Of a DNA stretch of 64,000 nt, positions 23,317 to 41,386 are shown piece after piece (within the stretch, counting starts at the first letter, position 1; each line of letters opens with the position of its first letter). The position numbers and the translations under genes were made by a program. The DNA comes from an uncultured Rikenellaceae bacterium (GTDB lineage Bacteria; Bacteroidota; Bacteroidia; Bacteroidales; VadinHA17). Where the stretch lies: NCBI GenBank assembly GCA_964633195.1, contig CAZWFL010000003.1:69795-133794 (forward strand), given 5' to 3'. The notes below the pieces were generated by a model that saw nothing but the letters and a program-made list of their open reading frames with translations, was not told the DNA's origin and made no database searches.

Positions 23317-23604
23317 TTACTTCTTAACTTTTGATTTAACCTTTGTAATGAATGATTTCGCCGGTTTAAAAGCTGGAATATTATGGGCAGGAATTATTAT
23401 TGTAGTATTCTTGGAGATATTCCTGGCTGTCTTTTTAGCCCTTTTCTTTACAATGAAGCTTCCAAAACCTCTCAGGTACACGTTATTACCACCGACCATC
23501 GAGTCTTTTACAGTTTCCATGAAGGCTTCAACAGTTTTCTGTACTGTCACCTTTTCAATACCAGTGTTCTTGGCAATTTCATTTACAATGTCTGCTTTAG
23601 TCAT
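23317..23604 (-). CDS. hup: HU family DNA-binding protein
   Basis: 95 aa; MTKADIVNEIAK...LRGFGSF...ARNISKNT...IPA...PAFKP HU signature. Confidence 0.92.
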   Translation of the reverse strand: MTKADIVNEIAKNTGIEKVTVQKTVEAFMETVKDSMVGGNNVYLRGFGSFIVKKRAKKTARNISKNTTIIIPAHNIPAFKPAKSFITKVKSKVKK

Positions 23605-23661
23605 TTTCGTGAAGTTTAAAATTCAACAAATTATTTTGAGTATTCGTTTTTTTCAACTGTG

Positions 23662-23669
23662 CAAATATA
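23662..23669 (-). promoter_or_regulatory. -7 promoter box TATATTTG (hup)
   Basis: The reverse complement of caaatata is an exact TAnnTTTG match ~58 nt upstream of hup. Confidence 0.4.
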
Positions 23670-23893
23670 AAAATATTATTTATTTAAAAAGAAACACTTA
23701 CGTAATAATTTTAATAAATATTTTTTTATTAAAGCCTTAATCACAATGAAATAGAAAAATCACAATAAACCTGAATCCTTTCAGATAACCATAAACTGTA
23801 AAGATACAGATTTCTGCATGAATTTATAATACACTGAAAATATGGTTTTTCGTGTAAATATGGTATGTTGATGGTATAAAGCTGTTTTTTTGT

Positions 23894-23901
23894 TAAATTT
23901 G
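23894..23901 (+). promoter_or_regulatory. -7 promoter box TAAATTTG (ssb)
   Basis: Exact TAnnTTTG match 40 nt upstream of the ssb ATG. Confidence 0.4.
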
Positions 23902-36022: not shown

Positions 36023-36169
36023 GATTTGCCGTTATTTAATAATTAAGGAACAAATTTTATACCATTTTTGCTCCAATTTTGTCAAAAATACTCATTTTCA
36101 TGCTAAGTTAGTTAATCATGAAATGTGTTAATTACAATATATTTTATATTTTTACGATACTGCAAACAG

Positions 36170-37522
36170 ATGTCGATGATTGATAATCCGGGAAAAAACA
36201 GGAAAACAGATGATATAAATCAGCTCTCAGACCGGTTATTCTCCGGAAGGATGAAAAACCTTGAGATCTATTCGGTAGCAGGAATTATATGCCTGATTCT
36301 TGCTGTTATTCTCATCTCCTTCGGACAAAGGCTGATTGCGGGCTCTCTTGTGATAGGGGGAGCTGCGATGATTGTCGTTGTGATGAAGAAAGCCTCAGTC
36401 ATGATCAGGAACCTGAAGGAATCGCTTAATGAAGCTGCTGAGGAAAATGAGAAACAGGGCAATGTAATATCTGTTTTCTCACACAAGATACGGGAGCCTC
36501 TCAATAACCTTGTCATTATCATCGACCTGCTTATGGCATCGGATCTCCAGAAGAAACAGAGGGAGCTTCTCGACACCTTTGTTGCCTCCACCAACAATAT
36601 GGTGAATACAGTCAATGAGCTGACCATGAAATCGGCGGCCGGGATTAAGTATGAACCAAGAAAGAATATTAAATTCAGCATAATACCCACTCTCAGGAAT
36701 ACTATTGAGCTTTTTAACCTGAAGGAGGATGCCAATATTGATTTCATCCTGAACAAGAAAGAGTTCTCCGACATGGAATTCACCGGAGATCCGGTGGTAA
36801 TGAAGCAGATATTCCTCGACATTTTCAATAACATTGAGGCTTCAGCTTCCGCTGACCGGCCGGTAAAGGTCACAATAAGTCTTAAGCAGGAGAAAGAAGT
36901 GAGAAATGAAATATTTATCGGATTCAGGATCCAGGCTGACAGAAAAATCGTTCTTACTAATGAAAATGGTTTAATCAACCTGAATGCAGTAAAGCTGATA
37001 TCATCAATAAATGGCAGTTTCAGTCAGGAGTCGGGCAGCAACTATACTGTAATCAATATTATCCTTCCATTCAGTAATCCCCGGGCCGAGCCGGATATCC
37101 CGATGCCGAAGGCTGAGGCTGTCGTAAAGAGAGCAAGGGTAAAAAAGGAGCTGAAAGATGTAAGGCTTCTGCTGGTGGAAGATAACCTGATCAATCAGAA
37201 GATCACTCATCTGACGCTTAAGCCTCTGGTCAACAGCATCGACACGGCCTCTAACGGAAGGGAGGCCATAGAGAAATTCAAGCCTTCCAGATATGACCTT
37301 ATACTGATGGATATCCAGATGCCGGTGATGAACGGACTTGTGGCAGCAGAAAAGATAAGGGAACTGGAAGCCGGCACAGATTCACATGTTCCCATTATAG
37401 CCATTACAGCCAATGCGATGCTTGGTGATAAGGAAAGATGCATTTCAGCCGGCATCGATGACTATATCAGTAAACCCTACCAGCCGGCATTGCTAATCGA
37501 CAAGATCAAGAACATCCTCTGA
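36170..37522 (+). CDS. hybrid sensor histidine kinase/response regulator (degenerate ATPase domain)
   Basis: One TM segment, H-box FSHKIREPLN and a C-terminal REC domain (LLLVEDN...LILMDIQMPVMNG...K). The G1/G2 ATP-lid motifs are not recognisable. ATG at 36170 preferred. Confidence 0.72.
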   Translation: MSMIDNPGKNRKTDDINQLSDRLFSGRMKNLEIYSVAGIICLILAVILISFGQRLIAGSLVIGGAAMIVVVMKKASVMIRNLKESLNEAAEENEKQGNVISVFSHKIREPLNNLVIIIDLLMASDLQKKQRELLDTFVASTNNMVNTVNELTMKSAAGIKYEPRKNIKFSIIPTLRNTIELFNLKEDANIDFILNKKEFSDMEFTGDPVVMKQIFLDIFNNIEASASADRPVKVTISLKQEKEVRNEIFIGFRIQADRKIVLTNENGLINLNAVKLISSINGSFSQESGSNYTVINIILPFSNPRAEPDIPMPKAEAVVKRARVKKELKDVRLLLVEDNLINQKITHLTLKPLVNSIDTASNGREAIEKFKPSRYDLILMDIQMPVMNGLVAAEKIRELEAGTDSHVPIIAITANAMLGDKERCISAGIDDYISKPYQPALLIDKIKNIL

Positions 37523-39415
37523 GATAAAGTCGCGCCCCCTGCGGTGCAGCTTTTTGTAACGGAGCGATGGAGAAGGATAGAAATCTTCAAAGCCCATAAA
37601 ACCCCACTTATTATTTATACTGTCTATGGTATCTGTATCGGAGCATACTACATTGGGCCATTTCCGGGAAAACCCGTCCCTGCGGTAATACTTGATGGTC
37701 CCGTCGACAAGGAGAGTCGCGGGGTTGATATAGAAATGATCTCTCACAGGATCGGAGTTTCCCAGCACCTGCCATGCTACCATATAAAGGTCATTCACAT
37801 CAACCGTGTGATCAACGGCAATTATCAGTCCTGCGGCCTTTTCGCCTGCCGTCTTCCTGATCTCTTCAGCCACCCTCTCAACAATACCCGGGGACTGTGA
37901 CGGATTGACGGAAATAACCACAACGGGAATGCCATCAGTAAGCAGCCCGGTATTATGATCGTCTGTCAAATTCCGGTCTGCAAGTGTTTTTATCCATTCA
38001 CAGTCAATGGCTTCATCACCGGGAATCAATACATTGCGGCCTCTTCCTTCCCTTTCCTCGGGCAGCTTGATTGTAGCGTCGATTCCCGCCTTTCCCCCGT
38101 AAGAGAAGCTGTCGGACGAATGATCGAGCACATCGAGAGGTCCCCTGGTGAAAAGGATGTCACGTTCGAAACAGGTGTTAATAAAAATATTATATAACAG
38201 TTCCCTGTAATTCCTGATATCTACATCACCGCTTACCACAGCCAGGTATTTGGTAAACATCATCTGGCCTGCTCCCAGGAGAGAGCTTATTACTTTCATT
38301 CCCTGACCGGGATAACTCTTGTTGATCTTAACAATAACAAGGTTATGCGCCACTCCCGGTTCGGGCATATGAAGATCTGTCAGTTCAGGCAGGAATGCTA
38401 TTTTCATCGGGGTCAGAAATATCTGTTCAGTTGCCTTTGCTAACCACGCATCCTCCTGCGGCGGTATCCCTACCACTGTGGCGGGATAAATGGCATTATG
38501 GCTGTGCGTGATACATGTAACATTAAAGACGGGATAGGTATCAGCGAGCGAATAGAAACCAGTGTGGTCTCCGAAAGGGCCCTCGGTGACTGTACCGGCT
38601 GCCGGGTCAATAAATCCCTCAATGACAATGTCGGCGTCATCCGGCACATAAAGGTCGCAGGTTATGCATTTTACAAGGTTCACTCTTCTCTTTCTGAGAA
38701 AGCCGGCAAGGATGTATTCGTCGATGTTTTCGGGGAGAGGTGCCGTGGCAGCAAAGGTATAGACCGGATCACCTCCGAGAGCGACGGCCACAGGCATTAT
38801 TTTTCCGCTTCTTTCCCATTCCCCGAAATGAGCCGCGCCTGTTTTATGCCTCTGCCAGTGCATTGCGGTGCTGTTCTTTCCAAGTATCTGCATCCTGTAC
38901 ATCCCCACATTGGTCTTGCCCGTTTCGGGGTGCCGGGTATGGACCATAGGCAGTGTTACAAATCGCCCGCCATCGTAGGGCCAGCACTGAAGTACAGGTA
39001 GTATGCCAAGGTCGGGATTTTTCACAATCACCTGCTGGCATAAGCCTCTCCTTCGAAGCTTTACAGGCATATAGCCGGCTGTTTTGCCAAGCTTAAGCAA
39101 CTTAAGGATTTTTCCGGCGATCCCTCCGCTTGTGTCAGACAGTGAATCGATGATATCCAGTATCTCGCTGCCTGCCTGGCCCGGATCTTCCCTGCCCAGT
39201 GCCATTGCCATCCGTTTTTTTGATCCGAAGGCATTCATCAGTACCGGAAAATCCGTTCCGTTGTTTTCAAACAGAAGTGCCTTCCCCCGGTTTTTGGCAA
39301 TACGGTCGGCAATCTCTGCCATTTCAAGTACCGGATCAGCGAAAGTATTAATCCGGTGAATCTCCCCGGCCTTTTCAAGGGCATTTACAAATTCAGATAA
39401 TCCGGTCCAGGACAT
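37493..39415 (-). CDS. UbiD-family (menaquinone biosynthesis-type) decarboxylase
   Basis: 640 aa; UbiD-like sequence throughout (…GPFGDHTGFYS…); long C-terminal region. Confidence 0.82.
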   Translation of the reverse strand: MSWTGLSEFVNALEKAGEIHRINTFADPVLEMAEIADRIAKNRGKALLFENNGTDFPVLMNAFGSKKRMAMALGREDPGQAGSEILDIIDSLSDTSGGIAGKILKLLKLGKTAGYMPVKLRRRGLCQQVIVKNPDLGILPVLQCWPYDGGRFVTLPMVHTRHPETGKTNVGMYRMQILGKNSTAMHWQRHKTGAAHFGEWERSGKIMPVAVALGGDPVYTFAATAPLPENIDEYILAGFLRKRRVNLVKCITCDLYVPDDADIVIEGFIDPAAGTVTEGPFGDHTGFYSLADTYPVFNVTCITHSHNAIYPATVVGIPPQEDAWLAKATEQIFLTPMKIAFLPELTDLHMPEPGVAHNLVIVKINKSYPGQGMKVISSLLGAGQMMFTKYLAVVSGDVDIRNYRELLYNIFINTCFERDILFTRGPLDVLDHSSDSFSYGGKAGIDATIKLPEEREGRGRNVLIPGDEAIDCEWIKTLADRNLTDDHNTGLLTDGIPVVVISVNPSQSPGIVERVAEEIRKTAGEKAAGLIIAVDHTVDVNDLYMVAWQVLGNSDPVRDHFYINPATLLVDGTIKYYRRDGFSRKWPNVVCSDTDTIDSINNKWGFMGFEDFYPSPSLRYKKLHRRGRDFISEDVLDLVD

Positions 39416-39515
39416 AAGAAAGCATTAATGAGTCATAAAGATATTCAATAAACCTGTTCCAGCTCATCAAACAGGAATAAACAGGAGGGTGTATAAACGG
39501 GTAATGCAGGTATAT

Positions 39516-40004
39516 AAAAACAGTAATGGGAACTATTCCTTGGATTAGTTCCCATTCACCTTGTGCAACCGAAGCCGCACAGGGCGTCAGGTTACTGTTA
39601 TTTTGACCGGTTGCATTTCACGACCGAAATCATGTTGTGCAACCCTGAGCTTTCAGGTTTTGCCTGTTACAGCAGCACCTTCCGGCTGTCCTTTCTCCCG
39701 CTTGCGCAGGATTCCGGGACGAAGCGTCAGTCAGGCCCTTTAGTCATTCCCCGAAGGGTTTGTCATTAAGTTTCAGAGGATTGAAAGCCGGAGCTTTTTT
39801 TCCTCTTCAGCCCTGTGACCCAGTCTTTGAAAGATCGTTTCCGGTTTTCGCTGACCTGCCGAACATCCGGGACCTGAGTCCCTTTGTTCAGGCTTCGGCT
39901 CTTCACACATGCAGACCCGGAGGTCTGACCGAAACAGATCGTGTTTCATTTAAGATTCACATTCTGTTTCCATGCAATCTGAGCAGTCTTTTATCGCTCA
40001 CCTG
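39516..40004 (-). ncRNA. candidate large structured RNA or leader, class unknown
   Basis: No credible ORF; G+C-rich compared with other spacers; a -7 box at 40011-40018 and a terminator at 39525-39556 bracket at least 9 tetraloop-capped helices plus a 12-bp long-range pairing. Confidence 0.4.
39525..39556 (-). terminator. 11-bp hairpin followed by a U-run
   Basis: Minus strand reads AAUGGGAACUA-auccaaggaa-UAGUUCCCAUU, then ACUGUUUUUAUAU. Confidence 0.6.
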
Positions 40005-40010
40005 ATGAAA

Positions 40011-40018
40011 CAAATATA
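40011..40018 (-). promoter_or_regulatory. -7 promoter box TATATTTG (candidate RNA)
   Basis: Exact TAnnTTTG match on the minus strand just downstream of the eno terminator; no clear -33 TTTG. Confidence 0.35.
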
Positions 40019-40033
40019 GTGTAAAAAGGGGAA

Positions 40034-40055
40034 GGACACATAATTTTTGTGTCTC
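40034..40055 (-). terminator. eno terminator-like hairpin
   Basis: Minus strand reads GACACA-aaaauua-UGUGUC, then CUUCCCCUUUUUAC, ~50 nt after the eno stop. Confidence 0.45.
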
Positions 40056-40102
40056 TAATTATACACGGGAAATAAACAGGGGTTATTAACAATTGTTGAT
40101 AA

Positions 40103-41386
<1,284 letters not shown>

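Follow-up and report, generated by a model that had tools for sequence, protein, structure and literature searches.

A candidate family of large, ornate RNAs in environmental Bacteroidales and Prolixibacteraceae that is absent from Rfam 15

Introduction

The known bacterial RNA classes longer than about 400 nt are few (rRNAs, RNase P RNA, tmRNA, self-splicing introns, OLE, GOLLD, ROOL and HEARO), and these have proved to be ribozymes, cores of ribonucleoproteins or, unexpectedly, assemblies of RNA alone. Here we analyze a stretch of 64,000 nt from an uncultured Rikenellaceae bacterium (contig CAZWFL010000003.1, positions 69,795 to 133,794 of the forward strand), the whole of which is referred to as the window. 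In it, the spacer between the genes for enolase (eno) and a UbiD-family decarboxylase (ubiD) holds a predicted non-coding RNA (ncRNA) of ~490 nt on the minus strand (39517..40006). The original prediction, made from the letters of the window, had proposed that this spacer may encode an undescribed minus-strand structured RNA, and our results support that interpretation as essentially right.

Several described RNAs share traits with the new RNA. OLE RNA (RF01071), which works as a ribonucleoprotein, is likewise large (~500-600 nt), ornate, single-copy and chromosomal, with many covarying helices set among invariant unpaired stretches; it too belongs to one bacterial lineage, largely of anaerobic or environmental organisms, and a biochemical function is not known for either RNA. 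The two show no sequence or structure match, however, and they differ in helix architecture, in phylum (Bacillota for OLE RNA, Bacteroidota for the new RNA) and in setting, OLE RNA adjoining oapA whereas the new RNA adjoins eno and ubiD, or unrelated genes, without a conserved partner. RNase P RNA (RF00010/RF00011) is comparable in size (350-500 nt), is likewise single-copy and inherited vertically, and also has invariant nucleotides at its junctions and a core of several domains that terminal helices close. By contrast to RNase P RNA, which is universal, the new RNA is found in one clade, its covariation gives no pseudoknot, and the RNase P covariance models do not match it at E<=10. ROOL and GOLLD (RF03087, RF01998) are also large and ornate with strong covariation and a function that is not known, but these are encoded by phages or prophages, often near tRNAs. 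ROOL, GOLLD and OLE assemble as RNA-only homo-oligomers (PMC12286853). The raiA motif RNA (RF03072) is a widespread structured ncRNA with no known biochemical function that is transcribed on its own, between a promoter and a terminator that belong to it, as is predicted for the new RNA; it differs in its length of about 200 nt and its occurrence in Bacillota and Actinomycetota, and its model does not match the new RNA.

Results

The spacer (39416-40102) lies downstream of rpsD-rpoA-rplQ of the ribosomal-protein/rpoA operon, between eno (40103-41380, minus) and ubiD (640 aa, 37493-39415, minus). Seven relative loci were found to have rpoA-rplQ-eno, a spacer of 670-980 nt, ubiD and a convergent HisKA/REC gene. 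The spacers of the eight loci align over ~500 nt with a mean nucleotide identity of 83%, which is above the protein identity of the UbiD relatives to the window UbiD (62-72%). Further homologues were collected by two scans. An exact match to the 5' block GGTGAGCGATAAAAGACTGC in a collection with one genome per species (scan 1) yielded 104 stretches in 103 genomes; nhmmer matched the RNA in all 104, and the matches were full-length in the stretches not cut by a contig or locus end. A scan of metagenome contigs by an independent pattern, the 3' hairpin alone (scan 2), yielded at least 119 contigs, with the RNA detected by nhmmer in 119 of the 119 listed. Homologous loci total at least 223 (104 genome stretches and at least 119 metagenome contigs).

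Covariation was measured in two sets of these homologues. In the first set (102 distinct sequences, mean identity 76%, minimum 52%), RNAalifold proposed 107 pairs, for which 96.8% of the cells were paired compared to 91.0% after column shuffling and 24-46% after sliding of the 3' partners; 63 pairs changed on both sides compared to 37.6 in the shuffles, a value that 0 of 500 shuffles reached. The larger set comprised 139 sequences of <93% identity from both scans, and realigning the main group brought out the central helices. For the resulting model of 142 pairs, 93.1% of the cells were paired (86.4% shuffled, 28-44% slid), 103 of the 142 pairs changed on both sides (68.1 in shuffles) and 1239 cells showed such a two-sided change (357 in shuffles), with 0 of 500 shuffles reaching the observed value by any of the five measures. 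When column pairs were ranked by mutual information with average product correction (APC), 15 of the top 20 were pairs of the model; the same search for pseudoknots detected no run of non-nested covarying pairs. Mutual information without this correction was swamped by the Sunxiuqinia subgroup and was set aside. The window sequence has a minimum free energy of -184.8 kcal/mol on the minus strand, with z = -6.5 against dinucleotide shuffles (z = -5.2 for the plus strand). Thus the compensatory substitutions anticipated for a genuine structured RNA were observed, and a ~490-nt RNA with 142 pairs, no open reading frame (ORF) and at least 223 loci falls within the descriptive grouping of large ornate bacterial ncRNAs.

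Coding capacity would be a competing account, in which a decayed protein gene or a small-protein gene occupies the spacer and the structure is incidental. The window copy does contain ORFs of 81 aa (+), 58 aa (-), and 60 and 68 aa (+), all short enough to arise by chance. Across the 102 homologues, however, the longest ORF (median 79 aa, strands mixed) shifts in frame, strand and position, the lengths of indels are not divisible by three, the helices carry compensatory substitutions, and no protein gene was found at the homologous position in any relative examined. We consider the probability of this account close to nil. The absence of a credible ORF had been part of the original prediction, as had a raised G+C content, which is likewise borne out: G+C is 0.475-0.53 over 39500-39900, compared to 0.38-0.42 in the flanks and 0.21-0.29 in a typical spacer of the window (23600-23900).

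The region is bracketed on the minus strand, as had been proposed, by a promoter-type box and by a hairpin followed by a U-run, both of which can be read directly in the sequence. The box, TATATTTG (40011..40018, minus), fits TAnnTTTG, the -7 element recognized by the primary sigma factor of Bacteroidota, and all 101 of the 101 distinct loci, unrelated genomic contexts included, have TAnnTTTG at one fixed distance upstream of the RNA. Homologue alignments place the limits of conservation just after this box and after GUUUU at the other end. The predicted transcript at 39517..40006 takes its 5' end from the -7 box and its 3' end from the hairpin and U-run. The 3' hairpin (39516..39556, minus; helix 36 of the model), AAUGGGAACUAAUC...GAAUAGUUCCCAUU with the tail ACUGUUUUU, is an interrupted hairpin of 14 bp with the arms AAUGGGAACUA/UAGUUCCCAUU. 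It looks like an intrinsic terminator, yet its sequence is itself invariant: among its pairs across the 139 sequences, 5 never vary and 7 vary on one side only. Since it is invariant in sequence as well as in pairing, unlike an ordinary terminator, this pattern suggests that the terminal hairpin may have a second role as a binding site.

These signals for a separate gene (the box in all loci and the terminal hairpin with its U-run) bear on whether the RNA could be processed from a longer message. A processed 3' untranslated region (UTR) of eno, or of the ribosomal-protein/rpoA operon transcript, would be consistent with most loci, in which the RNA immediately follows eno or rplQ on the same strand. 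The gene order is rplQ-eno-RNA-ubiD in about 90% of the loci, and rplQ-RNA-ubiD without eno in two genome loci (L099 and L032). The fixed-offset -7 box is nonetheless found in all loci, including those with other upstream genes, and the RNA also occurs with neither eno nor rplQ nearby, so that origin as a 3' UTR appears remote.

A second cis-acting account would make the RNA a giant leader, akin to a riboswitch or attenuator, that controls the downstream gene for a UbiD-family menaquinone decarboxylase through its terminator hairpin. Besides this terminator-like hairpin at the RNA end, the account is favored by spacing, as in about 90% of the loci 80-250 nt separate the RNA from a ubiD gene downstream on the same strand. 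By contrast, the complete RNA has no eno or ubiD within several kb in any of the cultured Prolixibacteraceae or in about 24 metagenome contigs; the neighbors there include icd and citrate-synthase-like, Crp-like, nspC-like, alaS and guaB genes, among others. Contexts thus differ from one locus to another (ubiD; Crp-like; guaB; others). The interval between the RNA terminator and ubiD lacks conservation apart from a second -7-type box, of the form TAnnTTTG/A, which precedes the ubiD start by 25-30 nt. In the window this box is TATCTTTA (39436-39443, minus; TATCTTTG in relatives), within a conserved TGAATATCTTT block, and it looks like the -7 promoter box of ubiD itself. Since this separate box sits 3' of the RNA terminator, ubiD need not rely on read-through. 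A length of 490 nt with about 30 helices is in addition far above the size of any known riboswitch, and no conserved covarying anti-terminator pairing was found for the terminator hairpin. We therefore regard a leader as improbable. Taken together, the fixed -7 box, the varied contexts and the unconserved RNA-ubiD interval with its separate ubiD box argue for an independent gene rather than a leader or UTR.

Relatedness to known families was examined with Rfam 15 (4227 models). By cmscan at gathering thresholds, no match to the RNA was found in the 64-kb window or in 18 homologous loci; indeed no family reached threshold anywhere in the window, and ARAGORN detected no tRNA or tmRNA there. Permissive searches (E<=10) gave three chance matches in 39300-40200 of the window and, for the divergent Sunxiuqinia copy, chance matches only; the models hit in the two copies (RsaOG, mir-3817, Plant_U3, snoZ267 and KCNQ1OT1) were rejected, as all had E>1 and fell far below gathering thresholds. 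The claim that the RNA class is undescribed thus withstood this comparison. A literature search by topic, taxon and sequence string likewise retrieved no description of the RNA, its coverage extending to neither subscription-only literature nor unpublished motif lists; the RNA is not described in the GC-IGR survey papers (PMC11109978, PMC8632094) or in the paper on ornate RNAs by cryo-electron microscopy (cryo-EM; PMC12286853).

A highly divergent housekeeping RNA (RNase P RNA, tmRNA, 6S RNA or SRP RNA) that escaped the standard models would be expected to be single-copy, vertically inherited, highly conserved and of housekeeping-RNA size, as the new RNA is. The failure of all models to match even at E<=10 in the window and Sunxiuqinia copies, the ARAGORN result and an architecture consisting of a five-branch core closed by the P1 and P2 helices count against it. 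Canonical type A RNase P RNA is normal in Bacteroidota. The new RNA is not known to contain any of the RNase P conserved regions or a tRNA-like domain. The fold is also a multi-branch structure of 490 nt and not a ~180-nt rod with a central bubble like that of 6S RNA, and a housekeeping identity seems to us quite unlikely to hold. Group I and group II introns are similarly at odds with the locus, as the RNA is intergenic, has its own promoter box and terminator, contains no ORF and matches no Rfam model.

The RNA is single-copy: the 103 genomes gave 104 stretches, and the window holds one copy. Its carriers are mostly metagenome-assembled genomes of uncultured Bacteroidales from soil, fen and peat, lake and marine sediment, digesters and activated sludge. 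Cultured carriers, all Prolixibacteraceae, are Maribellus maritimus, Sunxiuqinia indica, S. dokdonensis, S. rutila and S. elliptica. Other bacterial RNAs of similar size and ornateness are known from mobile elements and phages, and on this precedent the new RNA might be GOLLD- or ROOL-like, or a transposon guide RNA (omega RNA, HEARO or bridge RNA). No match was detected, however, in 2.9 million viral contigs scanned with two independent patterns, nor by blastn in phage and plasmid records, and Rfam gave none to GOLLD, ROOL or HEARO. The RNA is instead a single copy in conserved chromosomal synteny beside the ribosomal-protein/rpoA operon, and the neighbors seen are housekeeping genes, with no TnpB, IscB, IS110, integrase or tRNA among them. 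An origin in a mobile element or phage is thus very doubtful.

Real contig ends were often located inside the RNA or exactly at its ends (in more than twelve loci). Assemblies seem to break at the RNA as they do at rRNA genes, likely owing to near-identical stretches in co-occurring species and a 3' hairpin that is an almost perfect palindrome. An apparent insertion of ~270 nt in locus L060 (7297-7563) was rejected, as the stretch consists of N letters, from either masking or a scaffold gap.

The secondary-structure model (all coordinates on the minus strand) has ~30 helices. The 5' end is connected with position ~410-427 of the RNA by P1 and P2, both of them long-range, which close a core of five branches (P3-P7); the P8 hairpin and then the terminal hairpin lie 3' of this core, and about ten junction and loop stretches are invariant. 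The P1 strands UCAGGU (40000..40005) and ACCUGA (39587..39592) pair with each other, with pair types of U-A 98/U-G 28/C-G 11/G-C 2, A-U 123/G-C 15 and G-U 68/G-C 62/A-U 9. P2 is formed by GACU (39985..39988) and GGUC (39605..39608), its second pair being A-U 93/G-C 32/G-U 11. The 5' strands of both helices overlap a near-invariant 5' block, CAGGUGAGCGAUAAAAGACUGCUC (39981..40004), which is invariant in the first 8 syntenic loci; GAGCGAUAAAAG is nearly invariant in the metagenome members that were retrieved through the 3' hairpin alone. Between P2 and P1 lies an invariant unpaired stretch, AAAAUAACAGUA (39593..39604), found as AAUAACAGUA in about 95% of the members. Pairing of AACAGUAA with the 3' tail UUAyUGUU was possible in 95-100% of the first set but breaks without compensation in the larger set, and a rival pairing of the unpaired stretch with the 5' GCGAUA is invariant; neither alternative shows compensatory change.

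Within the core, domain P3 (39898..39984; helices 3-9) has a GCUC/GAGC stem and a three-way junction with two hairpins (loops CUUAAAUG and UCCG), and most of its pairs change on both sides. Domain P4 (39721..39896; helices 10-26) has a GAAG/CUUC stem and four hairpins, one of which is the invariant CG-GAAA-CG; examples of its pairs are 39887/39861 (A-U 104/G-C 20/G-U 14) and 39794/39787 (G-C 84/A-U 51). P4 is the most variable region and is expanded in Prolixibacteraceae. Domain P5 (39688..39720; helices 27-28) consists of a GUCC/GGAC stem, an internal loop and a variable hairpin (CCUGC-GCAA-GCGGG in the window), and in its distal stem 5 of 5 pairs change on both sides. The lone additional candidate from APC-corrected mutual information, 39716/39692 (rank 9; C.A 95, G-C 19, U-G 5, C-G 5), lies outside the model and would extend the P5 GUCC/GGAC stem by one pair. 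Domain P6 (39649..39686; helices 29-30) is built of GC...GC, GGUG/AACC and GCU/GGC stems capped by the conserved hexaloop GUAACA, with two-sided changes in 8 of 8 pairs, and domain P7 (39609..39644; helices 31-32) of a GGUUGC/GCAACC stem with a distal UUCG-type hairpin. P8, outside the core (39557..39586; helices 33-35), is CGCCCU...AAGGUG with GCGGC-UUCG-GUUGC.

Lineage-specific expansions were observed at hairpin tips of P4. A subgroup has a ~15-nt extension, CUGGUCCCAGACCAA, of the hairpin at 39861-39889; tip expansions were noted in twelve loci, in locus L168, where an insertion of ~50 nt carries additional UUCG hairpins, and in the Prolixibacteraceae loci, whose central domain is longer by 40-60 nt. 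Structured RNAs typically have such stems of variable length.

Eleven helices had been proposed from the window copy, and covariation in 102-139 homologues bore out 8 of these and not the other 3. The 3' hairpin and the helices at 39912-39927, 39861-39889, 39775-39806, 39749-39758, 39697-39710 and 39559-39584 are retained, as is the outer part of the helix at 39609-39644. Three fell in the set of 102 sequences: a 12-bp long-range pairing (39833-39845 with 39928-39940), which was 71.7% paired with uncompensated breaks; the hairpin CAG/CC-GGAA-GG/CUG, which was not supported; and the hairpin AACCUGA-AAGC-UCAGGGUU, the inner part of which was not supported. The nucleotides of these three pair elsewhere in covarying helices, with P6 replacing two hairpins within 39641-39688 and P1 and P2 being the actual closing helices.

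Other features of the locus were observed around the RNA. A semi-conserved element (ATTTCCCGTGTATAATTA at 40056-40073, minus) is situated ~45-60 nt upstream of the -7 box of the RNA and is found at the same position in loci L099, L036, L013 and L062, among others, with the sequence ATCAGGTTTATAACAAC in L099 and CAGGTTGATTTAAAAC in Sunxiuqinia. It is similar to the 5' end of the RNA itself (ATCAGGTGAGCGATAA) and may be a regulator site or an upstream promoter element. A palindrome, GTTATCAACAATTGTTAATAAC (40082-40103, minus), begins on the last base of the eno stop codon TAG (40103-40105) and is kept in two close relatives (L008 and L010); it could be an AU-rich terminator hairpin of eno or a protein-binding operator. 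On the other side of ubiD, this gene and a HisKA/receiver hybrid gene (36125-37522, plus) overlap tail-to-tail by 30 nt (37493-37522), and the same overlap is called in relatives.

Discussion

The evidence above makes it very probable that the RNA represents a genuine family of structured RNAs, independently encoded and missing from Rfam 15. No relation to a catalogued family could be detected, and it is in this sense that we call the RNA new. It is passed on vertically within a clade of environmental Bacteroidales, most of them uncultured, and no single neighboring gene is constantly linked to it. Going further, we favor, at a probability of about 0.6, the reading that 39517-40006 (minus) is a gene in its own right, the product of which is a stable structured RNA of ~490 nt that acts in trans. 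That it would represent a new class of large ornate RNA of environmental Bacteroidales and Prolixibacteraceae, on a par with OLE or RNase P RNA in size and complexity and acting as a ribozyme, a ribonucleoprotein core or a self-assembling particle, we rate slightly better than even, and by analogy to known RNAs a mechanism specifically through a trans-acting ribonucleoprotein or catalytic core would have an even chance.

Several points weigh against this reading. Sequence is the sole basis for the transcript, its ends and its abundance. Because each scan selected for one invariant block, that block looks more invariant than it should in the set so obtained, and the other set serves as the control. 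The alignments were MAFFT-based rather than structure-guided, and the center of P4 is poorly aligned in divergent members, making a few helices tentative. In the ubiD-linked clade, the same-strand spacing of 80-250 nt in ~90% of the loci makes some read-through coupling to ubiD possible. With respect to a partner protein, no recurrent neighbor gene was found across contexts, the nspC-like and saccharopine-dehydrogenase-like neighbors recurring in one Prolixibacteraceae subgroup only; because of this, the idea of a ribonucleoprotein is based on analogy with OLE, RNase P and similar RNAs.

A working model for the favored trans-acting RNA can nevertheless be outlined. The RNA would act in trans through a compact tertiary fold, with the ten or so invariant junction and loop stretches forming a compact core that may bind one or more proteins or another RNA, a ribonucleoprotein model adopted from OLE RNA. 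The pattern of invariant unpaired stretches can be likened to that of RNase P RNA and OLE RNA. Alternatively, the invariant core may self-assemble or serve as the active site for a catalyzed reaction; an RNA-only homo-oligomer, by analogy to ROOL, GOLLD and OLE, is a possible mode of action. The invariant 3' hairpin would double as terminator and recognition element.

With ~30 helices supported by covariation and about ten invariant junction stretches, the RNA is a strong candidate for new RNA biochemistry. Its carriers, which number more than 200 genomes and contigs, come from the sea and from soils, peat, sediments and sludge, and the depth of the alignment is now sufficient to design cryo-EM constructs and to build a covariance model. 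The RNA is also directly testable in organisms that encode it, as these include at least five cultured species.

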